Source: Octopus vulgaris (lineage: Eukaryota). Taken from it: a stretch of DNA of 64,000 nucleotides. Below, in pieces: positions 6,188 to 61,738 of the stretch. The notes below the pieces were generated by a model. The model was not told the DNA's origin and searched no databases. It was given only the letters and a program-made list of their open reading frames with translations. Position numbers and translations under genes: made by a program. How positions within the stretch are numbered: position 1 is the first letter of the stretch; every line of letters starts with the position of its first letter. The stretch covers positions 73,966,001 through 74,030,000 of the forward strand of contig OX597814.1 of assembly GCA_951406725.2 (NCBI GenBank). Direction: 5' to 3'.

Positions 6188-6333
6188 TGTATTTTCCTAT
6201 CCTGTTCCTGAAGGTAAAAGTGCCCAACAAATAGTTGATAGCCTACAAAAACAGGTAGAGTTGTTGGGTGCTGTTAAAGCTGGCAATTTTTATGTTGATT
6301 GTGAAACATATCAGTCTACTCTTCCGAATACAA
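6188..6333 (+). CDS. MED20: Mediator complex subunit 20, first identifiable coding exon
   Basis: ttttcag|t...a|gtaagt; encodes [48 protein letters not shown], matching the MED20 N-terminus (PVAEGKSVQQ...GTFCVDCETY). Confidence 0.93.
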
Positions 6334-7984
6334 GTAAGTTTCATTTATATTACATTTTATATTGCTTTATGTAATATAAATTCAGTATTTTAATAACTGA
6401 GGAAAGTTTTGTGTTAAAAAAAGTTTCAGTTTTAGATATTATTTAGTATCAGGTTAGCCCTAATTGAGTAGATCTATAATGACAGGCATTCAAGCTAGGA
6501 TCATCTTGTTAATATTTTAAAGTATAACGAATGCAAGACTACATCATTCTGAATATACATGTCCTCTTCCCTTTTTAGTGTCAATAAGCAAGAGAGATGT
6601 ACTTTGGTATCTGTTTTGAAAGCTATAGATAAAGAATATAGATAAAAAATTAATCTTGAAGTTTCAAATAGAATTAGTTTATGGACACAGAAAAGGTTGT
6701 GAAGAGCTCCCATCACATCAATGTTTCTCCTCTAACTATTATTAACCTGAAAGAATTCATTATGTGCATTGATCCTAATGTTTGCTCAGGGTGCTATACA
6801 TTTTGAGGAATACTTGATGGATGTTTGTCTTTATTATTGACTCTGGAAAGATGAAAGACAAAGTGAACTCAAAGTGAATATATAGTAAATACTGCAAAAC
6901 ATTTTGTCCACTATAGTTCACTTCTTTATTTAATATATTAATTTCATTAATTCCCACCTAGTTATTCTAATCTTTCTAGGTTACCTGAAAACTTTATAGT
7001 TACTATTTTGCCTCAGGTTAATTAATTTGTTAACTTTGCATCCAGTAGTTTTTGTTAACTGTGTTGTATTATTGCATATAATCATTCTGTACTCAGTGCT
7101 TTCTTTTTTAAATATATGCTGTGCAAAAGTAGGTAACTCCTGGTGAAGTTATTAGATTAGAACGATGTGTTCAAAAGGGTTTACACATTTTGGGTAGAGT
7201 CAGTAAAATCTGCATACTTGAATGGTGCTTATCTAATCGATCTCTGAAAGTGGAATTGATATTCAGTGTATAAAAGAGATATTACTAACACCATATACTT
7301 TACTGATTCAGCCATCCACTGTATTTAACATTCAGACTTAAGCCTCTAAATCAACTTTATTTTGTAATTATTTTTTTTTTACACTAGATACATACTTGAA
7401 AGAGAAGTGGTAGCAGCTGCTTTCTTTGCAGGGCTCCAAGTCTTGTGAGGTTGTTGCATGTTGGAAAAATATAGGGAGGGAGAGAAGGCTACAGTTTTGG
7501 GAAAAGAAAGATTGAACAATGTGTAGTGAGACACAGTAAAGATGAGGGGAGATGGATATGTAAGCAAATACCTTCTTTTATAAAGATGCTAGAATGTTAA
7601 GTGTTATCTGGGCATTATAAATTGATTAGTGATAAAGGATGAGAAACTCAGAGAGTAACAAGCCGAGTGGTTTATATTGTTGTGTAGCTCCAGTTCAATG
7701 ATTATTGAGTTGTCTTGGGGGAAATAAGTTGACATTTAAGTAACTACATGCAACAACCACTGCTCCAGGTACACTATGTCTTCACCTAGTTAATGGCATG
7801 CTGTATACTTTTATATGCTATAGTTAATCATATGAGGTTTAGAATGGTACTCAACTTCCTAGAAGTAGGAGTTAAATGTTCCTCAACAACATCCCATCAT
7901 CTTAAAAAAATGAAGTACGTACTATTGTGGGTTGTATCAAAGTTGGAATGAAATCTATGAATTTGTTCTTTGGAAGGGGTAGAA

Positions 7985-8441
7985 CCATGAAGTAATGGGT
8001 TGAAGTGGTGAAGCATGATCTTCGAACATTGGGCCTCACGGAGGCAATAGCAAGTGACTGAGACCTTTGCTGATACACTGTGCTTAAGAAGATCTGTCAA
8101 ATCAAGTGAAATCATAGTCATGGCTGATGCCAGTATCACATAACAGGCACCCATGCTGGTGAGCATGTAAAAAGTACCCTTTAAATATTGGGCCTCATAG
8201 AGGCAATGACAAGTGAAATCCTAGTTCTGTTCAATGTTGGGGTCACATAACTGGCACCTGTGCTGGTAGTATGTAAAAAGCACCCATTACACTGTTGGAG
8301 TGGTTAACATGAGGTGGGGCATCCAGCCATAGAAGCCATGCCAAATCAGATTGGAGTCTGGTGCAGCCCTACAGCTTACCAGTTTCAATCAAACCATCTA
8401 ACCCATGCTAGCATGGAAAACAGAAGCTAAATGATGATGAT
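7985..8441 (+). mobile_element. 5'-truncated 3' end of the RTE family at 13.6-16.9 kb
   Basis: gaagtggtgaagcatgatcttcgaacattgggcctcac... and tail ...agcatggaaaacag...atgatgatga match the 3' end of the long copy. Confidence 0.75.
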
Positions 8442-8607
8442 TTCTCTTGAGTACACTTGACTTTACACTCGTAAAAAGAAGATATCAATTTCTCGGAAAC
8501 AATTTCTTGGAGAAATGTAAATTGCATCCTAATGATTGTGAGGGGTAAAATTTTGGATTATATCAGTAGTTAACCTAGTTATTTACAGTGTTGATTTTGT
8601 TTTCTAG

Positions 8608-8858
8608 CTACTCAACGTTTGATTCATATATTACACAACAGTGAACAACCTGCTACATGTTTTGCCATTCTAGACACAGGCAATTGTCTAGTAGCTGACA
8701 GTCAGTTTGATGTCCTCATGCAACGATTAAAGGGTTTCTATCAACAAAAGAAAGGATCTAAAATTGAATCTAAAGGTCAAAGATATGAATATGGAGATTT
8801 TCTCATCAAAATTGGGACTGTATTAATAGCATCAAGTGTCAAAGGTATCCTTGTAGAG
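8608..8858 (+). CDS. MED20: Mediator complex subunit 20, internal exon
   Basis: tttctag|ct...gag|gtaatt, phase-compatible with both neighbours; LIHILHNSEQPATCFAILDTGNCLVADSQFDVLMQRLKGFYQQKKGSKIESKGQRYEYGDFLIKIGTVLIASSVKGILVE. Confidence 0.95.
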
Positions 8859-9143
8859 GTAATTAATAATTTTATCATTATTTTTTTCTTCTATTCTTTT
8901 ACTTGTTTCAGTCATTTGACTATGGACATGCTGGAGCATTGCTTTGAAGGGTTTTAGTCAAACAAATTAACCCCAGGACTTACTTCTTAAGCCTAATACT
9001 TATTCTATTGGTCTCTTTTGTTGAACCACTGACTTACGGGGATGTAAGCACACCAATACTGGTTGTCAACAGTGATGGGAGGACAAACACAGACATAAAG
9101 ACACACACACACACTTTATTAAAAAGCAGCAAAGATATCACAA

Positions 9144-9187
9144 AAACTGTTACTCAGAGTTTCACATTTCTGTTCGTTGGACAGTTT
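9144..9187 (-). ncRNA. Degenerate type I hammerhead-like motif in a pLTR-type repeat (MED20 intron)
   Basis: Minus strand: aaactgt-ccaacga-aca gaaa tgt-GAAAC tc t ga GTA-acagttt; all three helices form but the core has U4C and G5A changes. Confidence 0.5.
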
Positions 9188-9957
9188 AGTTTAAAATGGA
9201 ACAAAATATGGTTATATGCATAAATATACAATTACTTTGATAGATACACATTTGAAAATGGTTTTGTTTTGTTGGTCCTTTCAATCAACAGTCTTTTCAA
9301 TAACTGGTTGTATGAAATTACAATTACAGTTTAAATCATATAAAAATTGAAGAAAATCTTAAATCAAAAATAGATTATGTAAAAGAAAAAAAGACCTGAA
9401 TAAATTAAAAGATATATCTATTTTAAAAAAAACCTTCCACAAAGAACTAACATCCTAAAATACATATACATTTAGCAATACATATACATACCGAACAACC
9501 TACATATACATATATACACTAAATATACTGGCATTGGTTCAAGGCTATTACATATACAGACAAATATAGGCAAAGCATAGATATGTACAAATGCATATTT
9601 ATATATCCATGTACACACACATGCACGTGCGTAGTACCTCCTGGTGTGTGCTTATACAGCTTAGTTGTTACAGGCGAGAGAAAGAAAACGAAAAGAAAAT
9701 CAGAGAATGGTGGGAGAAAGAAAAAGGGAAAGGAAGAAAAAAGAAATAGAAAATTAGAAAGAGAAAGAGAAAAATAGATAGAGATAGAGAGTAAGATGAT
9801 TTGGAAGTTGGCATTCCTAAAAAGTATCTAACGAATGTTAGATACTTCGTTCAGCTTGCAAATGTGTACATATAAAATGACATGCATATCTACATAAATA
9901 CAAACATACATACAAATACACACACATATAGACATGCATACAAATAAACATATGTAA

Positions 9958-10007
<50 letters not shown>

Positions 10008-10223
10008 TTACTTGTATCTGTGACGGCGTTCACCCAAAGTGGGTTGAGCCGGCTTCTTCTCTGGTCCTAACGGCATCACGAACCATGGTGGCCTACGCTC
10101 AATGCAGGCTACTGGTTTTAAATTGATATTAATCAAATTAATATTCGATTTTTCACCCTTATTATTTAAATGTACCCCCCACACACACACATGTATATAT
10201 ACGTGCATACATACATACATATA

Positions 10224-10261
<38 letters not shown>

Positions 10262-10346
10262 CATCAAGATAAATATATACACCATAACGTATATATGGAT
10301 ACAAACATATTATAAAACACTGTCTAGTACAATAAATTAATATAAC

Positions 10347-11462
10347 AGTAGCAGGGTTGGATGCTCTGAGTGTAGCTACTAGAATAAGAATACCCTGGGC
10401 GAAGTTCAGAGAGCTCCTACCTCTGCTGGTGACATAGGGCTTCTCGCTCAGAGTAAAAGGTAGACTGCATGATGTCTATGTGTGAACTGCCATGCTACAC
10501 GGCAGTAAAACATGGGCTGTGACTGCTGAGGATATGCATAAGCTTGCAGGGAATGAAGCTAGTATGTTCCACAGGATGTGTAATGCCAGTGTGCATACAT
10601 GACAGTGTAAGCTCCCTGAGAGAAAAGTTGGACATAAGAAACATCAGATGTGGTGTGCAAGAGAGACAACTGCACTGGTATGGTCATGTGTTGCATATTG
10701 ATGAGGACAGCTGTGTGAAAAAGTGTCACACCCTAGCAGAGATAGACCCAGGAAGACCTGGGATGAGGTGATGAAGCACGACCATCGAACGTTGGATCTC
10801 ACTGAGATGATGACAAGTGACAAAGACCTTTGGAGATATGCTGTGCTTGAGAAGACCAGGCAAACCAAGTGAGACCATAATCGTGGCCTATGCCAGTGCA
10901 GCTCACTTAAGAGTACTCTTCAATCATTGGGCAATAAACTGCGCTTGTGAAGACCTGTTGAGGCAAATGAAGTTGTTGTTACGGCTGATGACAGTACCAT
11001 CTTATTGGCACCCAAGCCGGTGGCATGTAAAAAGACACTATTCGAGTGTGGTCCATGCCAGTGCTGTCTGACTGGTCCCATGCTGGTGGCATGTAAAAAG
11101 CACCATTCTAACATAGTCATTGCCACTACTGTCTTACAGGCTCCTGTGCCAGTGGCAAATAAAAAGCACCATTCAAGAATGGTTGTTACCAGTGCCGCCT
11201 GACTGCTCCCATGCTAGTGGCACATAAAAAGAACCATTCAAGCATGGTCGATGCCAGTACTGCTTGACTGTCTCTCATGCCGGTGGCACTTAAAAGCACC
11301 CACTACACTCTCGAAGTGGTTAGTGTTAGGAAGGGCATCCAGCTGTAGAGACTTTGCCAGATCGGATTGGAGCCTAGTGCAGCTTTCTGGCTTGCCAGCC
11401 CTCAGTCAAACTGTCCAACCCATGCCAGCACGGAAAGCGGACGTTAAACGATGAATGATGAT
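10347..11462 (+). mobile_element. 5'-truncated RTE LINE copy (MED20 intron)
   Basis: Colinear with 15850-16950: LREKLDIRNIRCGVQERQLHWYGHV, the ~58 bp tandem 3' UTR units and a (gat)n-like tail. Confidence 0.85.
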
Positions 11463-11689
11463 AAATATATAAAAAATAAGTAAAAATGAATAAAAAATAA
11501 ACCTTGGCGAAACTCAAGTTTAAATTTCTAAAACAGTTGAAGGTTTTCTTAAAAGTCGGATGTAAAATATAAAATGTGAAGTCAAAATATGAACTAGCAT
11601 TGTAATACAAAAATTACTATATATAAGATGTAAAGCTAAATTCAAATGCGAATGTCAAAATTTTCCAAAAGTCAAAAAAGTTTTACTCA

Positions 11690-12150
11690 TGCGCTATTTT
11701 ATTGGTTGACATTTTGAACCTTGCCGGGTGCCAGCAGGAATTTATGAGCTCATGTCCCTGGTTTAATGCATGTTTATCCTGCAACAGGATAAAGAACTTT
11801 TCTGAGAGGCAAAGATTACATTTCATAGGTCTTCTACAAGCTCCATGTTTATATGGTGGTGCTTTTTCCAAAATTGTCCAGCTGATATTGAAAGGATGGG
11901 TGTCATTGTCCTTCAGTTGCCAGACATATTTTGCAAGACTTGTTGCTGTCCTATTCTTGGGGTATCGGAAAGAATTTTGGTGGGAATAAAAGCCCCTGTG
12001 TAAATTTTATATTTTTGCAAGCCATCTATTGCACTTTAGCTCTATAAACAATTCCTTTTTCAAGACATTTACCCTCTAACGGACAGCAAGTCTTTGCAAT
12101 TGTAGTTCCTCAGATTAGATTCGGCACTGTGGTTGCTTGTAATAATTTTT
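11690..12150 (-). mobile_element. Penelope-like element, GIY-YIG endonuclease/C-terminal fragment
   Basis: Minus strand CPLEGKCLEKGIVYRAKV...YTG...ATSLAKYVWQLKD...WTILEKAPPY...CNLCLSEKFFIL...LNQGHELINSCWH, the typical PLE endonuclease and terminal Cys/His motif. Confidence 0.85.
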
Positions 12151-12212
12151 GTGTTATGCTGATTAATAAAAGAGGTATGTATATATATATATATACATAT
12201 ACACACACACAC

Positions 12213-12370
12213 AATGGGCTTCTTTCAGTTTCTGTCTACCAAATCCACTCACAAGGCTTCGGTCAGCCCAAGGCTATTGTAGAAGGCACATGCTCAAGGT
12301 GCCATGCAGTAAGACTGAACCTAGAATCATGTAGTTGGAAGCAAACTTCTTACCACACAGCCACACCTGC
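12213..12370 (-). mobile_element. SINE copy (family also at 23364, 36173, 46492)
   Basis: Reverse complement of gtggctgtgtggtaagaag...ggttcagtc...agccttgtgagtggatttggtagac...gaaactgaaagaagccc, repeated through the window. Confidence 0.75.
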
Positions 12371-12966
12371 ATCTGTAAAATAAAATTGTTTCTGTTGTAG
12401 GAATATTGGATTTTCATTTGGTAATATTTTGTTTCAAATAGTTAAAATTTTTTCTTTGTAATTCCAACCCTTGTGAGTCAGTGTGGTTGTGGTAGACTGA
12501 AACTGAAAGATATCCTTTGTGCACACATATATGCACACACACACGCATGCACACGTTTCACAAAGTTGAAGTTCTAGAATTCGATGTAGTGTTTCATTCA
12601 GGATCTGAGAGATGGGACTTTTTAAACCTAGTATTTATTCTACTGGCCTCTTTTGTCAAACTGCTAAGTTACTGGGACACCACCACTGGCTATCAAGCAG
12701 TGGTGAGGACAAATAGAGAAGACACTAGCCCAAAGTGCCATGTTGTGGGACTGAACCCAGAATCATGTGTTGGGAAACAAACTTCTTACCATAGAGCCAT
12801 GCTTGTACCTACTAAAGCTGTTTAGGGTTTGTTTTGTATTGTGTTGTACTGTGTGGGAATTAAGTATTTTCTCTAGTTTTTATTGTATGTTTTATTGTAA
12901 CATTGTATTACATTTGTTTGAGAAGTTTTCCTTTTCATTACTATTGTTTCTCTTTTTTTTTATCAG

Positions 12967-13176
12967 GTGGAATATTATCCATGTGCCATAATCAACGATT
13001 GCTGGAATTTAATGAAAGAACTCATTCAAAGCGTAATGGGTAATATTTTAGACAATCCTCCTGCAACTTTAAAGAACAAGTTAACTTCAGAATACAGTCC
13101 GTCTGACACTGTGCAGCAATATCTTGAACATTTCAATGTTTTCCGCAAAAATGTCTCCACAAATCAGTCACGATGA
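12967..13176 (+). CDS. MED20: Mediator complex subunit 20, last coding exon
   Basis: Polypyrimidine tract + cag|gtg; VEYYPCAIINDCWNLMKELIQSVMG...YSPSDTVQQYLEHFNVFRK...* matches the MED20 C-terminus; AATAAA at 13180-13185. Confidence 0.95.
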   Translation: MEYYPCAIINDCWNLMKELIQSVMGNILDNPPATLKNKLTSEYSPSDTVQQYLEHFNVFRKNVSTNQSR

Positions 13177-19764: not shown

Positions 19765-20783
19765 ATCAATTCTCTTAAGTTATTATCCTTGAACCTAATG
19801 GTCAGGCAGAGGCAAGCACTTTATATTTTATATAATTTAAATTTTCATGCTTCCGATTGCCAAACTATTTGTCGTTTATGACATGTAACTAAGAGTTCGC
19901 AGTTTCAGTTTGAAATTACATAAAAAAATATACATTCCATATTATTAAATTTGTAAGCCCATTACTTCCGACCGCCCTATCGTCACCGTTTGAAACTATT
20001 TCATTGTTCTAATCTTAACAAACTTTTGCTGTTTCTAGTTACTGTCCTTGTCAAGGACATCGAATATACTCTTGAAAGCCTTCCTCTTTCACTCGATCCC
20101 TTCTATTTACGGAAACCAAATCTGTTTGCGCTATTATCGATGACGGTGACGACTTCTCGGTTCTTAAGGTATGTTTTGATCACTGCATCAGACATTGACT
20201 TAATATCCTTATACTTCTTCGCCTCTCCAATCACTTTAAATGGCTTGTTTTACTCCAATGATTTCTGAGAGGAATTGAATGGAGTAGGCATGATTATCAA
20301 GATATATCACTATTACACCAACTTGTTTATAAATTATATTGAGATCTTCATTTTCACCTATTTTACAAGACCAATCTATATGGTTACTATATCGATGATA
20401 ATATTGGGTTTAAACTTTGGTACAAGGCCAGCAATTTCGAGGGTGGGGCTAAGTGCTTAACTGGTACTTATTTTATCGACTCCAAAAGGATGAAAGGTAA
20501 AGTCGACCCCGACGGCATTGAACTCTGGACGTAGAGAGGGAGATACCAGAGAAAAACGTCTCACAGAACCCAAAGGATTTCTACTCAAACAAAAATATTC
20601 ATCACAAGGTGCTACTTTGGTGCGTGGTCTATATACACATACAGGCAAGCAAGTGTGAAGGAAGATCCAACAAGTAAAATAAAGAAGTACGTATTCACGT
20701 AAGATGTATATAAATATAAATAAATAAATCTACATATACACACATACAGATGTGTTAGTTTAACGCTCGGGAAGTGAAAAAGA

Positions 20784-20820
20784 TTTTAATGTTTCGAGCC
20801 TACGCTCTTCCACAGAAAGA
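20784..20820 (-). ncRNA. Degenerate hammerhead-like motif in a Penelope pLTR-type repeat
   Basis: Minus: tcttt-ctgtgga-a-gagc gtag gctc-GAAAC att-aaaa; same family as 34454-34491; non-canonical core. Confidence 0.35.
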
Positions 20821-21222
20821 AACAAAGAAATAAAATAAAGAATGTGTAGTGGCTAGCGATCTATCATGGCGAATGCCGGACAGAAGGGTCACACAGGATA
20901 GCTAGGAAGAAGGGGAGATAATAAAGTAGTGGTGATCCCAAAACGAAGGTGCGCGTGCATGTGTATAAGAGAGTATGTATGTGCGTGTGGAAGAGGGCTG
21001 GTGACCTCGACGTGTGCGTGTGTGGATGTGCGGCTGGGAAGAGGTCAGTGCTAGTGTGTGCGTGGTGGTGTGATGTGATGTTGTGTGGTATGGTGGTGTA
21101 TGGTGTAGTGGTGACATCTACAAACACATACATAAAAAAATGAACATGCACATACATGTAGACGGACACACATGTATATATATATATATATATACACACA
21201 TACATACATACATATATATATA

Positions 21223-32222: not shown

Positions 32223-32283
<61 letters not shown>

Positions 32284-32285
32284 GG

Positions 32286-32336
32286 AGCTTCTACAGGACT
32301 AGAACTGTTTCATTCAAGAGAAATCTTCAGGAAGCT
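32286..32336 (-). ncRNA. Type I hammerhead ribozyme, family A copy 1
   Basis: agcttc-CTGAAGA-t ttc tctt gaa t-GAAAC ag ttctagtc ct GTA-gaagct. Confidence 0.75.
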
Positions 32337-32600
32337 AGTTAACAAGAATTGTATTGGCATTTATACATTTAGGCAGGTTTATAGGGGTGGTGGTGGGGGA
32401 CTTTTTGGGGGTAGGCATAGCGCAAAAAAATCATACTTGGGGGAGTGGTCAAGGAGTCAGTGGTAAATTAGATAGAAGAATAAATAAAAGAATAAAAAAA
32501 GAATAAAATACAAAAATATATAGAAGAATAGAGTTTTAGGTAAATAAGGAAATTCTCAACACACACACATATACATACACACATACATACACACACACCC

Positions 32601-32631
<31 letters not shown>

Positions 32632-32892
32632 TATACATACATATATCTACATATATATATATATACATATATATATATACATATACATACATACACATAT
32701 ACATGCATATACATATACACACACACATGTATATATACACACACACGACCACACATACACATACACACAAAAAAATATATACATACACACACATACACAT
32801 ACATACATACACACACATATCCACATACACACATGCACACACAACACACAAGTCCCTATATACTCATATATACATATACACATATATGTATG

Positions 32893-32948
<56 letters not shown>

Positions 32949-33356
32949 CATATGTGTACCTATTCATACACATATATGTACGTATACACACACACACATA
33001 TACACATACATACACACACATACATACATATGTGTACCTATTCATACCTACACATACACACATATATACATACAATTACAAACCCATTCCCTAATTTTAA
33101 TTTTATTATCTTCATTTATTACTTTTGTTATCTTTGACCGCTGGTCACAAACATCTTGGCTAGTCCCTTTTATCTTTCTACTTGAGCACAAGCACTCACT
33201 CATGCACGCACACTCATTAGCACGCACACACACTCTCATTCGTACACTCATACACATACACGCACGCACGCGTTATATTCATACATACATACATCTACAT
33301 ACATACACGTATATACACATACGTACGCGTACCTACGCGTACATACACATATACAT

Positions 33357-33445
<89 letters not shown>

Positions 33446-33530
33446 CATACACATACATACATACATATACACATATACACACACACATACATACACATAT
33501 ACACATACACGCACATACACATATACATGC

Positions 33531-33569
<39 letters not shown>

Positions 33570-33654
33570 TATATATATATACATACACACATACACATAC
33601 ACACATACACATATGTACACATACACACACATATTCACATATATATATATATCC

Positions 33655-33687
<33 letters not shown>

Positions 33688-33723
33688 TATACACACACAT
33701 ATATACATGTATGTATGTATATG

Positions 33724-33756
<33 letters not shown>

Positions 33757-33775
33757 GTAGATATATGTATGTATA

Positions 33776-33808
<33 letters not shown>

Positions 33809-34072
33809 GGGTGTGTGTGTATGTATGTGTGTATGTATATGTGTGTGTGTTGAGAATTTCCTTATTTACCTAAAACTCTATTCTTCTATATATTTTTGTA
33901 TTTTATTCTTTTTTTATTCTTTTATTTATTCTTCTATCTAATTTACCACTGACTCCTTGACCACTCCCCCAAGTATGATTTTTTTGCGCTATGCCTACCC
34001 CCAAAAAGTCCCCTACCACCACCCCTATAAACCTGCCTAAATGTATAAATGCCAATACAATTCTTGTTAACT

Positions 34073-34123
34073 AGCTTCCTGAAGATTTCTCTTGAATGAA
34101 ACAGTTCTAGTCCTGTAGAAGCT
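34073..34123 (+). ncRNA. Type I hammerhead ribozyme, family A copy 2
   Basis: Same 51 nt as 32286-32336; 6 bp helix I, GUA triplet at 34115-34117. Confidence 0.75.
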
Positions 34124-34206
34124 CCTTCTATATAATAAATTAATTTTACTCTGCTATGTATTGAGTACCTTATTTACTGTGGTTAACCCCGAATCAACCC
34201 GGGACC

Positions 34207-34247
<41 letters not shown>

Positions 34248-34297: not shown

Positions 34298-34343
<46 letters not shown>

Positions 34344-34453
34344 TATATATATATAACGGGAAGCTTTATGAAAATAGACAAAAGACGAAGGCAGGTGGAA
34401 AACAAACAAACAATTGTATTAGTATGGCGCTCAGGAAATATAAATAAAACAAG

Positions 34454-34491
34454 TCTTAAACGTTTCGAGCCTACGCTCTTCAACAGAAAGA
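34454..34491 (-). ncRNA. Core-variant minimal hammerhead in a pLTR-type repeat
   Basis: Minus: tcttt-CTGTTGA-a-gagc gtag gctc-GAAAC GTT-taaga; A6U change. Confidence 0.45.
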
Positions 34492-34534
34492 TACACAGAG
34501 AGAAAAAAAACACAGAAAGAAGGAGGGAAAAAAA

Positions 34535-34578
<44 letters not shown>

Positions 34579-34580
34579 TC

Positions 34581-35384
34581 AACTAATACGGGTGAGAAAT
34601 TGGATACTAATTTAATAGTACATCCATTTAACACCAAGTGGCTTAGTGCATAAAAACCAGGAATACAATAAATTTTATACATAAATATAAGAGAGTAACC
34701 ACTATGTGGTCGACTCTAGCACTAAAAATAGATCCGCTAGGTTTCAGCCACAAAGAATTGTTTCCGATGAAAGTTAGCACGACTACTAGCGCAAACGAAC
34801 AGGGCAAATAAAAATAACAAAAATGCAGATTAGTTCAGGACAATTGTTTCGCTATTAATAAATTATGTAATTTTACTCACACAACATAGCTGTAGCTCTT
34901 CAGCCGAACCCGTCCAGAATACAATTTACTCAACCGCACGCTAGATTTTACCATAACGATAAACACACGTGGGGTTCAGTCGATTCCATTCGCTGTTATA
35001 ATTCAAGTGCCCCTGCCACAGCCCGCCAAAATTCACGGAAACAGATACTACATCCAAAATTAAATGTAGTATAATTACAATAAACTAATAAGGGTGAGAA
35101 AATTGGATACAAATTTAATAGTATATCCATTTAACACCAAGTGGCTTAGTGCATAAAAACCAGGAATACAATAAATTTTATACATAAATATAAGAGAGTA
35201 ACCACTATGTGGTCGACTCTAGCACTAAAAATAGATCCGCTAGGTTTCAGCCACAAAGAATTGTTTCTGATGAAAGTTAGCACGACTACTAGCGCAAACG
35301 AACAGGGCAAATAAAAATAACAAAAATACAGTGCTACAAAAATTTAGTGCTAGAGTCAACCACTTAGTGGTTACTCTCTTATAT
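34581..35384 (-). mobile_element. Retrozyme/pLTR-like element: 1.5 copies of a ~502 bp unit plus a short terminal inversion
   Basis: 34581-34828 is repeated at 35083-35331; hammerhead in the unique part; 35343-35384 is an inverted copy of an internal 42 bp; flanked by (TA)n on both sides. Confidence 0.8.
34833..34909 (-). ncRNA. Canonical type I hammerhead ribozyme, family B
   Basis: Minus: gttcgg-CTGAAGA-gcta(38 nt loop)tagc-GAAAC aatt GTC-ctgaac; G10.1-C11.1 pair, GUC triplet, palindromic helix III. Confidence 0.85.
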
Positions 35385-35790
35385 ATATATATAAAACTGA
35401 GAATGTGTGTCTGTCTGTGGGAATCCCTAAAACTCGAGAACTACACAACCAATTTCATTCGAATTTTTGTACATGTTTCACTTAGGGTTCATGTAGTGTC
35501 ATGGACAAAAAAATTTTTAAACTCTTGCCTAGGGCGAGCCCACAGCAATATCATATCTTCTCCACTATTTCAGTATTACGTATTAAAAGTGAAACAAAAA
35601 CATCCCTCTATTGTAATGTCAGATGCTTTCACTTTAATACTGAAACTATTAAAGGAAACTATTATATAAGAGGGTTGAACCATTAACAGTGGACATCCAT
35701 TTTGCTAGAAGAAGATCCTCTATGGTCTTATATGCTACACCACTGGTTTTCAATTCATATTAAGGAAATTAATATTCAATTTTTCCCCCT
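35385..35790 (+). mobile_element. Possible 5' part of a non-autonomous Helitron-like repeat
   Basis: (ta)n-aaactgagaatgtgtgtctgtctgt...accaatttcattcgaattt resembles Helitron-derived repeat starts; end not defined. Confidence 0.3.
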
Positions 35791-36569
35791 TATTTTGAAT
35801 TTAAATTTACATGTATATATATATATAGATGTATACGTATAGATGTATATATTTGGATGTATATATATACATGTATATATATGGATGTATATATATATAC
35901 ACATGTGTATATATATATAAATGTATATGTATACATGTATATGTATAGCTGTATATGTATAAATGTATATGTATAGCTGTATATGTATACATGTATATGT
36001 ATAGATGTATTTCTATAGATATAGATGTATATGTATACATGCATGTGTAGATGTATATATATAGATAGATGTACATGTAATATGTACACATATATATATA
36101 TACACGTATATACATGCATACATATATACACCCATATACACATACACACCCACACACACAAACACACATACATAGGTGCAGATGTGGCTGTGTGGTAACA
36201 AACTTGGTTCCAAAACACATGGTCCTCAGTTCAGTCCCACTTTGTGGTAACTTGGCATGTGTCTTCCGCTATAGCCTCAGACCAACCAAAGCCTTGTCAG
36301 TGGATTTTGTAGACAGTAACTGAAAGAAATCAATTGTATATATATGTATGTATATATGTAAGTCTATGTGTGTGTCTTTGTGTTTCTACGTCATCACTGC
36401 TTCACAACTGGTGTTCGTTTATTTACATCCCCATAACTCACTGGTTTCACAAGAAGAAACTGATTGAATAAGTACCAGGCTTATCAAAATAAAAAAAAAG
36501 CACTAGGCAGTGTCTCATATTTTTGTTTGCCCACTTAGTTGTATCTATCAATTGATCTTTGTGTGTGTG

Positions 36570-36654: not shown

Positions 36655-36821
36655 ACGCACACACATATAATTATCAAAATTATAAATTAGGGTATCTACG
36701 AGATACCACCATGCTGAAAATAGCAGTCATGATCCGACTCTAAAACCATCTTAAGTTTTCATATAGCAACATGGAGAGAAGACAAAGAGACAAGATGAAG
36801 GTAAAAAAATATTACTGGATA

Positions 36822-36880
36822 ATTCCAGATCCCGGATTTCTGACTTTGCATCTTGGAATACTTTACCTCGTCAGTGGAAT
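36822..36880 (-). ncRNA. Type I hammerhead candidate, family C copy 1
   Basis: Minus: attcca-CTGACGA-ggtaaagtattccaagatgcaaagtc-a-GAAA tcc g gga TC-tggaat; helix II weakened. Confidence 0.55.
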
Positions 36881-37045
36881 ACACTCAGAAAGAAACATAA
36901 ATACATATATATATATATAAACACAACATTTTGAACTAGCCCCGATGCATACGTGCATATATATGTATGTATACGTTCGTATATGTAAGTATTCGTATGT
37001 TGTGTTTATATATATATATATGTATTTATGTTTCTTTCTGAGTGT

Positions 37046-37104
37046 ATTCCACTGACGAGGCAAAGCATTCCGAAATGCAATGCCAGAAATCCAGGATCTG
37101 GAAT
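37046..37104 (+). ncRNA. Type I hammerhead candidate, family C copy 2
   Basis: attcca-CTGACGA-ggca aa gcatt ccga aatgc aa tgcc-a-GAAA tcc a gga TC-tggaat; AUC triplet; extra A before G12. Confidence 0.65.
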
Positions 37105-37335
37105 TATCCAGTAATTTTTTACTAGTTTCATCTTGTCTCTTTGTCTTCTCTCCATGTTGCTATATGAAAACTTAAGGTGGTTTTAGAGTCGGATCATGGC
37201 TGCTATTTTCAGCATGGTGGTATCTTGTAGATACCCTAATTTATAATTTTAATAATTATTACCTTTGAAGGTTATTTTTTTCCCATGCTGGCCACTTGAT
37301 AAGTTCGTTATTTTATTTTAAACTAACGATCTTAT

Positions 37336-45084: not shown

Positions 45085-45624
45085 CATATATATATGTGTG
45101 TGTGTGTGTGTGTATGTGTGTGTGTGTAAATGCGCGTGTGTCTGTGATTCTATTTTCTGCGTATCTTTCTAAATAAACATATGCAAACACATATACATTC
45201 ACTCATATATATAAATATATTTTACACAAAAACACACAAATACTCACACAGAGTTGAAGCCCTGTTTGATTTTTGTTTCACCGTTGACTTTTCACCATTC
45301 CACTTCCATCGGTGGATTACCCCTTCCTTCCTCATTCATATGTTGTGTCGGAGAAATACAGAATAGTATTATTATAGTAGATTATCATACTAGAAGACTC
45401 ACGGCGCTCTCTTTGCTATTTCCTTTCTCTCATTGTTATTACTTTCTCTCAGTCCCTCTCAGTCATGGCTATTATTTTCACAACTTCTCCTTCACTGAAT
45501 TACTATTTTCGCTCCTCTCCCTTCACTGTTCATTCTTTCTACGTGATTTTGGACATACACACACATAAACACACACACACATACATACAAATATATAAAA
45601 AGCACTACGCTCATCATTATATTA

Positions 45625-45657
<33 letters not shown>

Positions 45658-45664
45658 CATATAT

Positions 45665-46110
45665 ACTTGGAAGTGGATGCGTGGCGTTCCATCATATAAT
45701 AACAAAATAATAAATAAAACATATGCATATATACATACATATATGTACGTACCTACATCTATATGTATATATACATGCATATATGGGTACAGGACACCAA
45801 AAACACCTCGAGCACAATGAGAAACGAAAACATAAAAACAAAACCAAGGAAACGGACATTTTTTAAACAACAAGATATACAACACAAGGAAAATTCCCCT
45901 TCTTCAGCCGCCTCTGTTTCGTCTACTCTGTGTTTCGAAAGTGAAGGCGAGACACGACTTCGCTGAAACAGTACTTCCCGCAAAGCAAATTAAATAAAAT
46001 TAAAAATTTTTTGCGGAGGGGTAAAAGTGGTAACAAAAACAGGACAGTAAAGACAATACAAATAAAAACAGTAAAAGACAGGACAAGGACAGCCACGCCT
46101 ATAATATATA

Positions 46111-46150
<40 letters not shown>

Positions 46151-46400
46151 TATATATTATAGGCGTGACTGTCCTTGTCCTGTCTTTTACTGTTTTTATT
46201 TGTATTGTCTTTACTTTCCTGTTTTTGTTACCACTTTACCCCTCCGCAGTGAAGGAGAAGTTGTGAAAATAATAGCCATGACTGAGAGGGACTGAGAGAA
46301 AGTAATAACAATGAGAGAAAGGAAATAGCAAAGAGAGCGCCGTGAGTCTTCTAGTATGATAATCTACTATAATAATACTCAGTCATACAATAGTGTAATA
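45665..46400. mobile_element. pLTR-type repeat with fold-back and captured flanking DNA
   Basis: 46012-46120 is inverted at 46141-46248; 46247-46379 is the reverse complement of 45365-45497. Confidence 0.75.
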
Positions 46401-47129: not shown

Positions 47130-47638
47130 AGTCATACAATAGTGTAATAAATAAATATATGCATACATACAAACATATATGTACGTACCTACATCTACAT
47201 GTATATATACATGCATATATAAATATATATACGTGTGTACAGGACACCACAAATAGATGTAGAACTCAACGAGAAACGAAAACGTAAAAACGGCATGGAA
47301 CGGACCATTTTTATAACAGCGAAAAAACAGAGTACACGACAACTACACAAGGAAAAATCCCCTTCATCAGCTGTCCACCTTCGAAACACGCTGGAGTTCA
47401 ACTAGGGACTACTGATGAAGGGGATTTTTCCTTGTGTAGTTGTCTTGTACTCTGTTTTTTCGTTGTTAAAAAAATGGTCCGTTCCATGGTGTTTTTACGT
47501 TTTCGTTTCTCGTTGAGTTCTACGTCTATTTGTGGTGTCCTGTACACACGTATATATATTTATATATGCATATATATATACATGTAGATGTAGGTACATA
47601 CATATATGTTTGTATGTATGCATATATTTTATTTATTA

Positions 47639-48152: not shown

Positions 48153-48190
<38 letters not shown>

Positions 48191-48273
48191 GGTCCCGGGT
48201 TGATTCGGGGTTAACCACAGTAAATAAGGTACTCAATACATAGCAGAGTAAAATTAATTTATTATATAGAAGG

Positions 48274-48324
48274 AGTTTCTACAGGACTAGAACTGTTTCA
48301 TTCAAGAGAAATCTTCAGGAAGCT
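48274..48324 (-). ncRNA. Type I hammerhead ribozyme, family A copy 3
   Basis: As family A, with one helix I substitution (gaaact). Confidence 0.7.
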
Positions 48325-48641
48325 AGTTAACAAGAATTGTATTGGCATTTATACATTTAGGCCTATCTCTGACTTCACACACCAGGAAAGTCATGGAACG
48401 AATAGTCAGAGGGAAACCAATTGCATTCTTCGAAGAAAATGACTTGCTGAATGATACCCAGCATGGCTTTCGACTATGTAGGAGCTGCCTGACCCAGCTC
48501 CTACAACACTATGACTGTGTGTTGAAGCAGTTAGTCGACAACTCAAATGTGGACGTAAAATACCTTGACTTTGCATAAGTTTTTGATAAAATTAATCACG
48601 GTATGATAAATGTATAAATGCCAATACAATTCTTGTTAACT

Positions 48642-48692
48642 AGCTTCCTGAAGATTTCTCTTGAATGAAACAGTTCTAGTCCTGTAGAAGCT
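48642..48692 (+). ncRNA. Type I hammerhead ribozyme, family A copy 4
   Basis: Identical to 34073-34123. Confidence 0.75.
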
Positions 48693-48707
48693 CCTTCTAT
48701 ATAATAA

Positions 48708-48738
<31 letters not shown>

Positions 48739-49929: not shown

Positions 49930-51393
49930 GGCAGTTACGATGTATTACATCGACGTTGGTGAAGAAGATATAATACTAGACATAGATTAGGTGGACGCAC
50001 ACTCAGCTGCTGGCCTTGATGGTTTACCAGCAATTCTTCTGAAATCGAGCGAACATGCCTTGGCAAAACCATTAGGGATTCTCTTTCAGAGTTTTCTTGC
50101 AAATGTCAAGCTGCCATGCAAACTGAAGGAAGGAATAATATGCCGAATCCACAAAAGAGGAAGCAGAGCAGATACCAAAAAATTTAGGCCTATCTCTGAC
50201 TTCACACACCAGGAAAGTCATGGAACAAATAGTCAGAGGGAAACCAATTGCATTCTTCGAAGAAAATGACTTGCTGAATGATACCCAGCATGGCTTTCGA
50301 CTATGTAGGAGCTGCCTGACCCAGCTCCTACAACACTATGACTGTGTGTTGAAGCAGTTAGTCGACAACTCAAATGTGGACGTAAAATACCTTGACTTTG
50401 CATAAGTTTTTGATAAAATTAATCACGGTATGATATGCCACAAACTGCGCTATCTTGGCATAGCTGGAAAACTTGGAGAATGGTTACATGACTTTCTGAA
50501 AGATAGAAGTTAGGCAGTAGTGGTCATTGGAGCCACCTCAAAGAAAACACAAATAGTGAGTGGTGTTCCACAGGGCACTGTCTTGGGACTACTGCTTTTT
50601 ATAGTGGCCCTCTCAGATATGCCCTCAGCTTCCCGGATAGCCACCCTTGCAAGCTATGCTGACGATACGAAAGTCTCACAGAAAATACAAAATCCTAGCG
50701 ATTTTGCACGCCTGCAGCAGAAGTTGGACGCAATTTACAGATGGGCTGAGGATAATAATATGCAGTTTAATGCTTGAAAATTCCAATTCCTGCGCTACCA
50801 AAACTGAATGAAAACCTTACAGGGTACATTGGCTCAGGTGGGGATTACAATCCCAGAATATAAATCAGTGAGGGACCTGGGTATTAACATGAGTGATGAT
50901 ACCTCTTTCCAAGTGCACATTACCAGGATGGCGACAAAGTGCAGACGGCTGGCTGGATCCTGAGAACCTTCAGAACCAGAGAGAAGGAAACCATAACGGT
51001 CCTCTGGAAGATATCCGTATGCAATCGTCTAGACTACTGCTCCCAAATATGGTCACCCCACAGTGTAACATTAACAGCGGACCATGAAGCAATCCAGCGA
51101 AGCTTCACAAAGAAGATCGTCTCATTGCAACAGCTCAGCTACTGGGAAATGTTGAAACAGCTAAGACTACTCCCTGGAGTGAAGGCGGGAGAAATATGCA
51201 GAAATATACATCTGGAAGATGTTAGAAGTGATTGTGCCAAATTTTGGCATTGAAAGCTACACAAATGCCAGAACGGGTCGCCACTGCATTGTGCCAAAGA
51301 TCTCAACAATGCTATCGCGTTTCAGGACTAGTTCCTGCAGAAGACTGGGTTTCAGGGGCCCACAGCCTGAGGGACCTACACAAGGTGGATGTA
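49930..51393 (+). mobile_element. CR1/L2-like LINE RT fragment, interrupted by Tc1 and resuming at 53098-53200
   Basis: AAGLDGLPAILLK, QHGFRLCRSCLTQLL, SGVPQGTVLG, SYADDTK, DYCSQIWSP; reads ...LHKVDV|GVFKTKL across the Tc1 insertion. Confidence 0.9.
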
Positions 51394-53771: not shown

Positions 53772-54659
53772 TTCTATTATATTCGTCTAAACTATTTTAG
53801 TACTAATATTGCAGTAGATACCAGTTTAGCCATGAATATTCTAGTTGTGATCCTCCAGAATCATACAACTCATGGAACCAATTAATCGGTTTATATGTCG
53901 TTTACGTGACCAAGATCTCAACGCTTCCCTGAGCAGTATGCAAGTTTGTGGCAAAGTTACCATTTACAGCTAAGTGAGTAACGTGAAATGAAATATTTTG
54001 TTCAAGAACACAAATCATAGCCCGTTCTTTGACTAGAAACCACGGTCTTGTGGTCATGATTGCAACACTCTAACCACAAGGCCATGCGCTTTCACCTTTT
54101 GAGTGATCACAAGTCTCCAAGGAATTCCTTCTTTGACCAAAAGAAGTTCATTTCCTTCTTGTCATTTATTATAATTACACTTACATGAAGGATATCTTAT
54201 AAAGATATTAAATCGAGTTCAATATGTAACAGGCAAGTTTGCTTCGGTGCATTCAGAAGCACATCCGCTTAATATGCAGAACAAAAGGACAAATCATAGC
54301 CAGCTGGAGACGATGTCTCCTGGGGCTAAATTGCATCAACATTAGTCCTAAACCAGGACTGCCATGTTATGTTGGCAAACAATCTTTACTACAAAGTACT
54401 GTTGCTGAATATCTCACGTTGTAAGATTTAAAAATAGTAATTTTCTAAGGATCCTTCAACTGTTAGAAATGCATGTATTATACAACTCAAAAGAAAACGC
54501 TCAAAGATCGGTGTTTCATCTAAAATATATGATACACTTGTTGAGATTCAAAAGAAGCTTCAAAACCAGTATGTAACATAATAATCAAATAACAATCCTT
54601 ATGTATCTAGTTATTTTTGTCAAAAAATAATGAAGTAGGTTTTTGAGTCGAAATCTTAC

Positions 54660-54822
54660 CGTATCTTTATCCCAAACTTCATAAGTCATGCCAGTTATTA
54701 TCATTTTTATTAAACTAGCTAATAATATGATCATCATTACAAGCGGGGATATATACTTCCACATTATTAGCCAGAAGTAACTAGGACGTGTTCCAACCAT
54801 TACATGAATGTCATCAGCAAAT
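54660..54822 (-). CDS. SLC6 transporter exon (TM11)
   Basis: tacag|a...acg|gtaaga; FADDIHVMVGTRPSYFWLIMWKYISPLVMMIILLASL...YEVWDKDT. Confidence 0.93.
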
Positions 54823-55912
54823 CTGTACAATGAAAAAAAATTGAATTATATATTTATGCACGCATACACATACAATACATATACGAAGAAGTGGCTTTAG
54901 CGAAAAACTGGCACATAAACAACATCTTCACTATAACAGCAAGTGAGCAATAGGAAAATAAATTGGTTTAATTTATCATTCTACATGAATTTAGTCACTA
55001 ACATAACAAAGAATTTTATATCTGAAGTACAATCACTTTTCTCATCTGAGCATAAATACCAAAAGCCTTTTAACACCATTAACATTAAGATCAGCTATTT
55101 TTATCTAAAAACTATAAATTCAGGAACTCTTAAAATTGCCCACTAGCTCTCTAAGGTTATGATATATATATATAACCAACCATAAATTCCGTAAAGTATC
55201 TCGAGAGAAATTACACAGGATTCACTGCAAATACTTTCAGAGCAGATATAACTAACATGAAAGCAACAGAGAATAATCCATCTCACAATTTCAATTCGTT
55301 TGGAAAATAAGGGACCACAGAGATAGAACAAGTCTTTATAACTTGGAATTTAGTGAATAGATCTACATCGTTCATTAACAGGTCTGGAAAGTGTAGATTA
55401 TGCGTGACTGATATATTCCAGATCCTGAAGCAGCTATCCATGTAGGTGAATTGAAGATCCAAAGTATTGTCTCTGTGCCATCACCGAAGACTCCTTTGGA
55501 GTAGCACAATCTGAGAAAATACTAAAAAATTTTGGAGTCAAAATATTACCAAATCGATGGAAAGTTGTACCTCTGTGATATCGCAGGTCAAACTAAAGTG
55601 CTCTCCCCTTCAAAAAAGCATAACCCTCAAGCAGTATCAGTAGAACTATGAAGTGAATTTCTAAACAATAATCATGTCACACTTGCGCCCATTGTATTGA
55701 AAATTATATATTTCCTTTTCGTAAATCAGTTGTTACCACCATGTAGCACAATCGGTTATTGATTTCGTATAAGAATATTCTATATATAAATTCATATTTA
55801 ATCATTCCCTCCCCCAAAATTCAGGCTGTTATCCCTCCGCCACAAATTTCTGGTATTCGATTCAGCTGATGAAACAACATTGTTTTCATCGAATAACAGA
55901 AAAACAACTTAC

Positions 55913-56072
55913 TTGCTGAGGCCATAAATATATGAGACAGACATAACTTCAGCAAATGCTATAAAAAGCAATGGTAATCCACCGGTGAATTCATCAAAGA
56001 GCACAAACGTATAACTACCCGACTGGGCTGCAAAACTGAGTGAGATCAAAAATGATGTTAGGCACAAAACAG
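55913..56072 (-). CDS. SLC6 transporter exon (TM9-10)
   Basis: tttcag|ct...aa|gtaagt; VLCLTSFLISLSFAAQSGSYTFVLFDEFTGGLPLLFIAFAEVMSVSYIYGLS. Confidence 0.93.
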
Positions 56073-58184
56073 CTGAAAAAAGAAAAGAAATATGTCAAAA
56101 GATAAGAAACAGTTATTGAATATTAATACATACACATTCAAACAAGTAGATTTCTATGTATTTGTACGTGTGCACGTGAGTATGTCAGTGTGTGTGTGCG
56201 CGCGCGAGCGAGCGCTTGTATATGTATGTACATTTATGTGTAAATTTCTGAGTAGTTTCTCTTTTTCTTTATGGTAATGGTGAAATTCAATAGAAAGGTC
56301 GAAGACATAATTTCTTTTGAAAGACTTTAGAACAAGTTATCTAAGAATGTACACAAATTACATTTCCTTCATATATGCTCCCAATTTTCTGAGTTGCACT
56401 AGAAGAAATGCTAGCATTTGTTGAAAACTGTGTTACTGAGTTGACATCAGCAAAACATTTAACTATGCCTGCAAGCTTACGAGCAAAAATACATGCCTAT
56501 GAGCTTCATCCATTTCTCGTCTCTTGGATCGGAGGCTTTGACTAATGCATTGACTAATGGTATAGCATCCTCTGATCCACACTATGAACCCTGTTGTGAA
56601 TAAGTTCGGTTTCCCCCTCATACTCTTTCTTCTATGCATCAACAGTGTACTTGCAGTTATGTCCAACAACCCCCGTCTGCTGAGCAGACTACTCTTTACG
56701 CCTCTCAAACCTTTCACATCCAAGTTTCCCCCGCATGCATCCTATACACCTAACGCCTAACATATTCTATAACCTCGAAAATATTCTGCAGTGGAGCCAA
56801 AATGGGCCCCATTTCACAGCACAAAGACACGACCTCTATCAAAAAAGCACTCTTTAAACACGAACAATACGCAAATAGAACCCTCAAAATTGCTACAAAT
56901 AATTCTTCATACAGACGAAAGACCTCGAATTCAAGGGAATGGAAGAATCAATTATATCAGCTCCAGTATCTGTACTTCTTTCGATCCCGAAAGGGTGAAA
57001 AGAAAAGTTGACCCTGGCGCGATTCGAACCCAGAGTGCAGAGCGCAGGAAAGAATATTGCAATAAAAGACTTTGCTAGATCGTTGCCTTTAAGTTGCTAC
57101 AAATAATAGCGTTTCTCCTTCCAGATGATCTCTCGTGACGAACTGATATCCTCAAAAGAGTGAAGACCGTATAACAGGCTCTCCTCTTTAGGGGTAGAAA
57201 AATACATTAAAACTCCTAACAGTTACTAACACCATGCAGATGAAATGTTGCTCTTGTATCAGGGACATTGTAGATTGTACTCTTACAAACATTTTGCATG
57301 TCTGCATAAAATGATTCGATGGAATAGATTAGAATCAATCACCAAATCTTTCTAGCCTCTAATCAAAATATGTGTTACGAGCAAAACGCCCTCCGCCCAA
57401 TGGACGGTGCTGAGTTGTTAAACATTTAAACCAAATTTTCTCAAAACAGCTTGTCCGACCGTCCCATTTTGTGGCATTATTTCAAGCCACCCGGCTTTTT
57501 TTGTGCAAACTGCACGAGCATTTTTCTCGCGTACGTGTAGTATCGATCGCAACAGCTGATGTACTTGCGCGTACAAATGCACGTTCCCACGGCTTTATCG
57601 ATCGTATTCTCACCTGGAATCGATTTTTGTAATTTTTTCAAGACTTATACACGCCCTGATACCGTCGGTATCTACATATCAAATTCGAGCGCAATCGGAT
57701 GGAGAATGCCCTAGATCCTAGAAGACACACACACACACAGACAGAACGGATTTTATATAACAGATTTCCTTGCTCGGCCTCTTCTGCCACAATTACAGTG
57801 GTTTCTGTTCTTTGGAGATGGATGAACCACTTTGCCAAGTTCTTCCTTCCTAGAACATCACGTCCTCCGGAGTTTCCTTTTACAAATGTTTTTTTCTCTA
57901 CAAACATTACTTTGTAGTTGATCAGGAAATAACATTAACTGCGTCAATCTCACCAAAATCGGAGAACGTATGAAAGACATAGGCATACCCGCTTGCTCCA
58001 GACCAAATCATAAAAAAACTGCCATCTTAGTTCTGTTATTTGAGGGAAAATTGGCTGTTATTTCTCGAAGGTCAAATAGTTATGTAGAAGCTCCCTCGTT
58101 GCTTCGTCAATATAATGATTGCTTTACTCAGACAATGAGGTTGTGTAACGTGCAGTTTTAATGTAATTATAATACGATATTTAC

Positions 58185-58392
58185 CTGGTATAAAAAATCG
58201 ATTCTGTCGAAGGAAAGGATATTTGCCAGAATCTGTGACCAATGTAGTAATGCACTCGAGAGTGCCAAACATCGAATCTAACCCAAGGGCTAGCAACATC
58301 AAGAAGAATAGGATTGCCCAAAGTGGTGAAACTGGAAACTGGTTTATTGCTTCAGTGAAAGCAATAAACGCCAAACCTGGTCCTCCAGCTGT
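58185..58392 (-). CDS. SLC6 transporter exon (TM8)
   Basis: ttatag|aca...g|gtaaat; [46 protein letters not shown], characteristic of SLC6A15-20-like transporters. Confidence 0.95.
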
Positions 58393-61416: not shown

Positions 61417-61485
61417 TGATAGAAATGGTAAGACAACAAAAGAATGAAAGAGAGCTCGATATTATGTAAATAGAGGAATTATCTG

Positions 61486-61612
61486 TAAATATAATATGTG
61501 ACAATTATTCGGTAGCCATGATAAAACTCCGGTAGACATGCTAATATGTGACAATTACTCCGAAACTCGGAGTTTTATCATGGCTACGGAATAATTGTCA
61601 CATATTATATTT
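61486..61612. repeat. Short inverted pair of a pLTR-type repeat
   Basis: aaatataatatgtgacaattattcggtagccatgataaaactccg is mirrored at 61568-61612; the spacer contains a direct re-copy of taatatgtgacaatta. Confidence 0.75.
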
Positions 61613-61738
61613 ACACACACACACACATGTATATATAAGTACATACATACGGTTATATAGATAGATCGATCGATCGATAGATAGTGACGCGGATAAACAT
61701 GATTGGGCTTGCTATATATAAATACATATACATATATA

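Follow-up and report, generated by a model that had tools for sequence, protein, structure and literature searches.

One and a half units of a non-coding, multi-copy repeat bearing a predicted type I hammerhead in Octopus vulgaris

As read from its sequence, the element described here is 1.5 copies of a multi-copy, non-coding repeat of 503 nt that carries a predicted type I hammerhead ribozyme. It lies on the minus strand, from 34578 on, within 64,000 nt of Octopus vulgaris contig OX597814.1 (positions 73,966,001 to 74,030,000), and this whole stretch is called the window below. We consider it moderately probable that the element is a non-autonomous insertion of the PLE/retrozyme type, in which reverse transcription (RT) would have begun internally on a linear dimer and proceeded to its ribozyme-cut end. 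The locus is probably a decaying insertion without host function.

Layout of the element and its hammerhead

The outer parts of the element are two copies of a 252-nt repeat. Copy A (34578-34828, minus strand) forms the 3' part and runs from just past the ribozyme to the inferred RT start, and copy B (35080-35331, minus strand) forms the 5' part, whose 5' end at 35331 equals 34828 + 503. Between them lies the single-copy middle of the unit (34829-35079, minus strand), which contains the ribozyme and a strand predicted to pair with 34765-34822. The direct repeat, placed at 34581-34828 and 35083-35331 in a preliminary description of the locus, was confirmed, the two copies matching in 245 of 252 columns and differing by 6 substitutions and 1 indel; its start was corrected to about 34578. 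In a 232-nt core the copies are 503 nt apart, and over the terminal 22 nt the spacing falls to 502, as copy A has one A fewer. The constant period of the ~502 nt unit proposed earlier was retained, but its length is 503, as read from contig joints in all four sequencing runs considered below, and 502 applies to the terminal 22 nt only.

Runs of TA flank the element on both sides, as the preliminary description had stated. The target microsatellite on the 3' side is a (TA)n tract at 34538-34576, and the right flank (35380-35397) consists of (TA)7 and AAAA, with the TA run itself at 35380-35393; a target-site duplication is unreadable inside (TA)n. The longer right flank, 35381-35470 ((TA)n-AAAACTGAGAATGTGTGTCTGTC), has one match in the window and presumably resembles the 5' end of Helitron-type repeats.

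The 42-bp inversion reported on the 5' side was also confirmed. This inverted arm (35343-35384, plus strand) is a copy of 35229-35188, with 40 of 42 positions identical, and is separated from copy B by a junction filler of 11 nt (35332-35342, no strand) made of short local repeats. Both a partial tandem (pseudo-LTR) and an adjacent inverted, 5'-truncated copy are thus present, and a second inverted junction was found among the contigs of run X17 (record 9). Right where the inverted arm starts, the right flank at 35380-35397 could form pairs with the element RNA at 16 of 17 positions, compared with 13 of 17 at the next best site. This potential pairing suggests that the second target strand may have primed the arm. 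In LINE-1 twin priming, the inverted 5' segment begins where the target can pair with the RNA, and in this respect the element is similar; it differs from LINE-1 twin priming in that the inverted arm duplicates direct-arm sequence and there is no poly(A) tail. The two changes within the arm were considered as a sign of a second RNA molecule, which they did not establish (P 0.12).

The type I hammerhead is predicted at 34832-34910 on the minus strand, with the cut between 34839 and 34838. Stem I (7 bp) is formed by 34910-34904 with 34838-34832, and the core comprises CUGAAGA at 34903-34897, GAAA, and GUC at 34841-34839. Stem II, GCUA/UAGC, is closed by the pair G10.1-C11.1, and stem III has 2 bp and the palindromic loop AAUU. 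A structure-aware scan returned 4 type I motifs in the window, compared with 0.05 per shuffled window (20 shuffles), and only the one at 34832-34910 combines the G-C pair with GUC. The earlier view of this ribozyme as a canonical GUC hammerhead and the best in the window therefore holds for its core and its rank, but not for its size, as stem II carries a 38-nt insert. This insert is probably the reason why Rfam missed the hammerhead: there were 0 matches in the window at the gathering score, and the 15 matches at E-values up to 10 in 34300-35450 included no ribozyme family. Matches to a Wolbachia sRNA and to microRNAs at the loose E-value were discarded, as they reflect the inverted arm only, and a hammerhead-like CUGAUGA on the plus strand (35268) is without GAAA and failed the scan. 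One hammerhead was found in 34578-35395, and no two-hammerhead array was seen.

In fold predictions, stem III of the monomer has a pairing probability of at most 0.011. The catalytic stem II pair G10.1-C11.1 has a probability of 0.02 in this copy, in which a second GCUA competes, and the letter carried by nearly all contigs at 34889 lifts it from 0.02 to 0.86. According to these models, this copy is probably damaged, its private change at 34889 being predicted to misfold stem II, and the family probably keeps the catalytic fold though this copy misfolds. A failure of 34909-34833 to cleave could be unrelated to the family because of the 2-bp stem III and the predicted misfolding of stem II. For hammerheads with a short palindromic stem III, efficient cleavage is reported to depend on a second copy (PMC4209133).

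The lack of a convincing coding sequence, claimed earlier, was borne out. The longest stop-free frame entirely within the element has 67 aa, and no Pfam family was found in the 11 frames touching it that were searched; four further frames of 51-69 aa fell outside this search. Across the window, GIY-YIG Pfam families had no match in 150 frames, and a regular-expression search for PLE-type protein words returned none in 276 frames. A PLE ORF with RT and GIY-YIG domains is absent from the element, and the window yielded none for a partner PLE either. The Pfam scan gave 6 RVT_1 matches in the window, all outside the element, which we read as ordinary LINEs. A frame beginning MYKIYCIPGFY looked by eye like a GIY-YIG start and was dropped since it had no Pfam match. 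The element is not an autonomous PLE.

Copies of the unit in sequencing runs

Of 24 listed sequencing runs, 20, from 10 studies, contain the stretch or part of it, and none is on record as RNA. Four runs (X2, X6, X11, and X17) were placed on one period, 34700-35202; X11 and X17 are RNA by guess only, and their contigs serve here as family copies, with no expression claimed. The four runs yielded 163, 308, 67, and 15 contigs on the unit, with identities of 80-100%. In all four, the end of the period is joined to its start at a period of 503 (500 back plus 3 letters), which bears out the constant period expected of other copies, and these contigs are too short to separate 1.5-mers from longer arrays or circles. 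The earlier assignment to a partial tandem of retrozyme type, related to PLEs and with a single hammerhead in each unit, is supported; many copies of the family exist, and the unit closes on itself.

An 84%-identical contig of X17, with 32 other letters, spans 34928-35126 in the same order and has no inserted ORF. Among 29 listed substitutions of the diverged contig, 14 are unpaired, 10 keep a pair, and 5 break one, where 11.3 pair-breaking changes were expected (P 0.002; opposite strand, P 0.057). When both partners were required to lie inside the contig, 7 pairs were kept and 3 broken, which is not significant (P 0.05-0.13). A hairpin beyond the inferred RT start (35045-35072, minus strand) was checked in one diverged family contig, in which one pair is compensatory, three one-sided changes keep pairing, and one breaks a pair. 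The fold of the unit has z values of -5.0 (linear) and -4.8 (circular) on the ribozyme strand and of -3.3 and -3.0 on the other strand. Control strands reached -4.8 in 6 of 72 cases (from 36 of 85 microsatellite-free windows), and these six come from three windows, two of which overlap fold-backs. As judged from sequence comparison, the ORF-free 503-nt unit is old, structured, and multi-copy; selection on its structure is suggested, and the case is weaker with partners restricted to the contig.

The proportion of placed letters running on into unlike sequence was 1-2% in three runs and 49% in X17. Loose ends at 34881 (X11) and 34928 (X2, X11, and X17) appear to mark related subfamilies with another 5' ribozyme half, one of which has a CUGAUGA core followed by UUUA. 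Pairing of the loose end at 34928 in register with the 3' strand of stem I was not counted, because 128 of 2000 shuffles equalled it. The X17 contigs give no cover at 34887-34920, a gap that carries no weight. Contig depth, which is not equal to copy number, rises at 35074-35090 in X2 and X6. In X11, RNA by guess, depth peaks just past the ribozyme, and in the DNA-like X2 and X6 it peaks at the 3' end; the contrast concerns bins 34785-34835 and 35091-35141, for which contig depth is a poor measure, and the X11 profile is only a lead for an expressed subfamily.

Searches beyond octopus gave 0 matches for a 20-mer pattern in viral contigs and 0 for both a 24-mer and a 19-mer in metagenome contigs. 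In prokaryote genomes, an 18-mer had 10 matches against about 17 expected by chance, none extending over more than 33 nt. A gapped-core pattern gave 39 matches in viral contigs, which were rejected as none had both stem I and stem II.

Ends of the element and possible templates

In the sense of the ribozyme, the 3' end of the element is 261 nt downstream of the predicted cut. Its 5' end lies 10 nt past the corresponding cut site in the preceding unit. The length of 1.5 units is not a random one. Cut linear RNA is a likelier template than a circle because the far end sits at the predicted cut site. The earlier description had offered two options, 1.5 turns of RT around a circle or the copying of a multimeric transcript, and the latter fits best with a 5' end 10 nt from the cut.

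The 3' end is formed by a terminal hairpin and the motif TTT(C/T)TCACCC-TATT (34578-34635, minus strand), a putative RT start signal. The motif has 2 matches outside the element in the window, where it ends fragments at 10149 (+) and 35780 (+), each about 25 nt or less from a microsatellite. Four 3' ends folded to a consensus yielded no more than a weak 6-bp helix, which does not establish a common structure, and the shared signal is consequently one of sequence and not of structure. The two fragments concerned, 10008-10175 (+) and about 35600-35810 (+), look unrelated apart from this motif and run into a microsatellite; by their sequence, they are candidates for other clients of the same PLE protein.

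The 5' ends of other copies were read from 24 of 108 loose-end rows and 32 of 576 pieces, those listed. Of fourteen right-hand loose ends sorted by eye, 11 were read as diverged homologous sequence and the other 3, at 35175, about 34832, and 34821-34834, as true ends; three opposite-strand joints add six ends, one of them at 34833 (X17). The X11 end near 34832 runs into a microsatellite, and the X17 loose end at 34821-34834 is ambiguous. Among the listed rows, 3 of 9 readable ends lie within 20 nt after the cut (binomial P 0.004), or 2 of 8 (P 0.04), and about six lie elsewhere, as does the inverted arm of this locus. The clustering involves two or three copies in a small, filtered sample sorted by eye.

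The mechanism we favor would begin with transcription of a tandem locus. Its hammerheads, weak as monomers to judge from the 2-bp palindromic stem III, would cut some junctions only. A PLE RT-endonuclease would nick (TA)n, and cDNA synthesis would start at the hairpin and motif, at the observed end 261 nt past a hammerhead. RT would pass one uncut hammerhead and run out of template at the observed position, 10 nt short of the next cut site. A dimer cut at the first hammerhead and uncut at the second would leave 1.5 units with one ribozyme. The other target strand would anneal to an AU-rich stretch of the RNA, at the pairing described above, and prime the 42-nt inverted arm, and the two cDNAs would be joined via the 11-nt filler.

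Several steps have parallels in known PLEs. For the anole PLE, RT is reported to start internally, downstream of the hammerhead, at AT-rich targets, with both strands extended (PMC11167929). Partial tandems, inverted 5' copies, and a (TA)n bias are given as PLE hallmarks (PMC8557442), and non-autonomous PLEs are described as inserting mostly as short truncated pieces in microsatellites (PMC9977147). A total of 31 recently active PLE families has been reported in O. vulgaris (PMC13282606). Against an end set by cleavage, insertion of the anole PLE in vitro is reported without need for cleavage, and no RNA-seq reads are described there as starting or ending at the cut site (PMC11167929); in the second hammerhead family of the window, moreover, the 5' boundary is upstream of the core and not at the cut.

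A circular monomer, around which RT would have gone 1.5 times, is the published retrozyme model and would involve the same family and PLE machinery. We regard such a template for this copy as rather unlikely. Retrozymes of coral, mussel, and axolotl are reported to accumulate as circles (PMC7229834), and more-than-unit copies are what a circle predicts, as proposed for PLEs and retrozymes (PMC4209133; PMC7229834). Every part of the unit is bridged on itself in the contigs, and cut linear templates would lose a unit per generation, which circles would restore. The strong folding of the ribozyme strand (z of -5.0 linear and -4.8 circular, compared with -3.3 and -3.0) would suit a circle, but its strength does not tell circle from line, and 6 of 72 control strands are as strong. 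The seven differences between copies A and B fit later mutation: divergence is about 1.4% per copy and equals that of private changes elsewhere in the unit, where this copy differs from nearly all contigs at 34889, 34986, and 35111. However, five of the seven crowd within 42 nt (P 0.038) and both letters at 34621/35124 are present among the family contigs, a weak hint of two template units. These differences do not decide between circle and multimer. A stop within 20 nt of the cut would occur by chance in 4% of cases on a circle. In a second pass, the RNA would already be paired to cDNA, and an RtcB-type join would be a normal linkage, leaving the cut site unmarked. As the 5' end lies only 10 nt away from the cut, where further copies also terminate, the 1.5 turns around a circle were given up as the leading reading. 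The layout alone can no longer be read as the footprint of a circular RNA, since the same layout is described as ordinary in PLEs, including those without a hammerhead (PMC8557442). Circles may still occur in the life cycle of the family.

It is improbable that the 5' boundary was set without cleavage, by an internal promoter just past the ribozyme or by RT stalling at an uncut stem I, with the hammerhead perhaps a passenger. The ends stop at the base of stem I and miss the bond by 5-10 nt; stem III of the monomer is predicted to pair with a probability of at most 0.011; in the neighboring hammerhead family, the 5' end is fixed at a point other than the cut site; and 8 of 9 Xenopus retrozyme dimers are reported as uncleaved in vitro (bioRxiv 10.64898/2026.07.22.740005). 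However, the core shows no damage, and with the common letter at 34889 stem II reaches the probability of 0.86, as expected if the family keeps the catalytic fold.

We give very little credence to a truncated autonomous PLE, in which two short 5'-truncated copies were placed head to tail via template jumping and no free 503-nt unit exists. PLE insertions are described as mostly truncated partial tandems (PMC8557442), and ORF-bearing continuations could sit among the other 84 of the 108 loose-end rows. However, contigs cross 35079/35080 with considerably more than 31 letters on each side (X6, 34977-35158; X11, 35045-35199; X17, 34928-35126), some of them about 10-16% diverged, and the unit is without an ORF or Pfam family. 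That a single repeat copy was duplicated locally, or appears twice through an assembly artefact, in a region rich in fold-backs and local duplications, is hardly credible given the seven differing sites, the location of both boundaries at functional landmarks, and the end-to-start order repeated by diverged contigs in four runs.

Related elements and significance

The window contains a second hammerhead family, whose four copies all have the same 5' boundary, some 45 nt upstream of the core. The locus at 48188-48709 has a type I motif with a GUA cut and U-U at the base of stem II. It is composed, in order, of a 175-nt minus-strand copy, 254 nt copied from 50182-50435, and a 103-nt copy in inverted orientation; (TA)n lies to either side. 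The 254-nt insert is 99.6% identical to the LINE fragment at 50182-50435, 1.8 kb away, and looks, from its sequence, like nearby DNA captured during insertion. At 32275-34209, two copies of this family lie back to back, and the intervening DNA is inverted and duplicated (463-nt arms, 93%). In addition, a decayed, minimal-hammerhead-like motif of the PLE type (UUGAAGA GCGUAGGCUC GAAAC GU) is found at 34356-34540 (-); it adjoins the 1.5-unit element with the (TA)n run alone between them, and has a 73% relative at 20738-20839 (-). Long fold-back palindromes or inverted arms occur at 4925-5416, 36667-37259, 45365-46379, 47232-47550, and 61484-61615. Host exons at 6141-13173 (+) and 54588-58392 (-) code for Med20 (three frames) and a sodium:neurotransmitter symporter (two frames), and the Med20 exon is 98% identical to the Octopus bimaculoides protein. 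Other fragments we take to be an RTE/CR1-like LINE, mariner, IS1595/Merlin-like, and PIF1-helicase (Helitron-like) elements.

By analogy, the element would work like a metazoan non-LTR retrozyme, and it looks like a non-autonomous PLE. Similar to the retrozymes as described, it has a non-coding AT-rich unit (GC 36.7%, i.e., below 50%) with strong self-pairing; each unit has a single type I hammerhead whose stem III is short and palindromic, and there are many dispersed copies in head-to-tail order (PMC7229834; bioRxiv 10.64898/2026.07.22.740005). Its unit of 503 nt is longer than those of the retrozymes first described (150-450 nt) and within the 51-972 nt of the 2026 preprint. It is unlike metazoan retrozymes, as far as these are described, in having one hammerhead at the locus and a 38-nt insert in stem II. 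At least two consecutive units, each with a complete hammerhead, define an active retrozyme in the preprint, and by this rule the locus, with a single hammerhead, is not one; metazoan retrozymes and non-autonomous PLEs are argued there to be the same thing (bioRxiv 10.64898/2026.07.22.740005).

The element shares with EN+ PLEs (Penelope/Poseidon, Neptune, and Hydra), according to the reports on them, the partial tandem, the adjacent inverted 5'-truncated copy, the (TA)n target, and a hammerhead upstream of what may be a fixed internal 3' end (PMC8557442; PMC4209133; PMC11167929). In contrast to them, it has no RT/GIY-YIG ORF, and its ribozyme has canonical stems instead of the minimal PLE form. 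RT would start 261 nt after the cut, compared with about 85-92 nt reported for the anole element (PMC11167929). The non-autonomous Chlamys PLEs, such as MRC1, are similarly described as ORF-free, with pLTRs, head-to-tail order, and microsatellite targets, and their 3' ends resemble those of other families (PMC8557442), much as the 3' motif of this element recurs on two other fragments. They are reported to differ in being mostly without hammerheads, in (C)n or (CA)n targets, and in their host, green algae (PMC8557442). Since Chlamys PLEs are mostly without hammerheads, partial tandems can evidently arise without a ribozyme.

The literature covered describes no octopus or cephalopod retrozyme family, and supplements or repeat libraries (Repbase, Dfam) may already hold this one; the giant squid paper gives 235 Rfam hammerhead loci, as far as consulted without analysis (PMC6962438). 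The class of object is already known, and the element would be a new member of it, which may already be catalogued, in a lineage for which none was found described. The role of the hammerhead in PLEs has been called unclear (PMC8557442), and no conserved motif is reported in a 2020 review to indicate the mobilizing element of animal retrozymes (PMC7761336). In this copy two landmarks can be read: the 5' end lies at the ribozyme cut, and the 3' motif is common to microsatellite-flanked fragments. A shared 3' end is a handle on the driver of animal retrozymes. We put forward as a tentative prediction, somewhat less probable than its opposite, that insertions of the family form a ladder of about 0.5, 1.5, and 2.5 units, bounded by the hammerhead cut and the internal PLE start. 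Such a ladder, if true, would amount to evidence from the genome that the 5' end of a PLE-type template is determined by hammerhead cleavage in vivo; the 3' motif in common would then identify the autonomous driver behind an animal retrozyme, and circles would serve solely to regain units.
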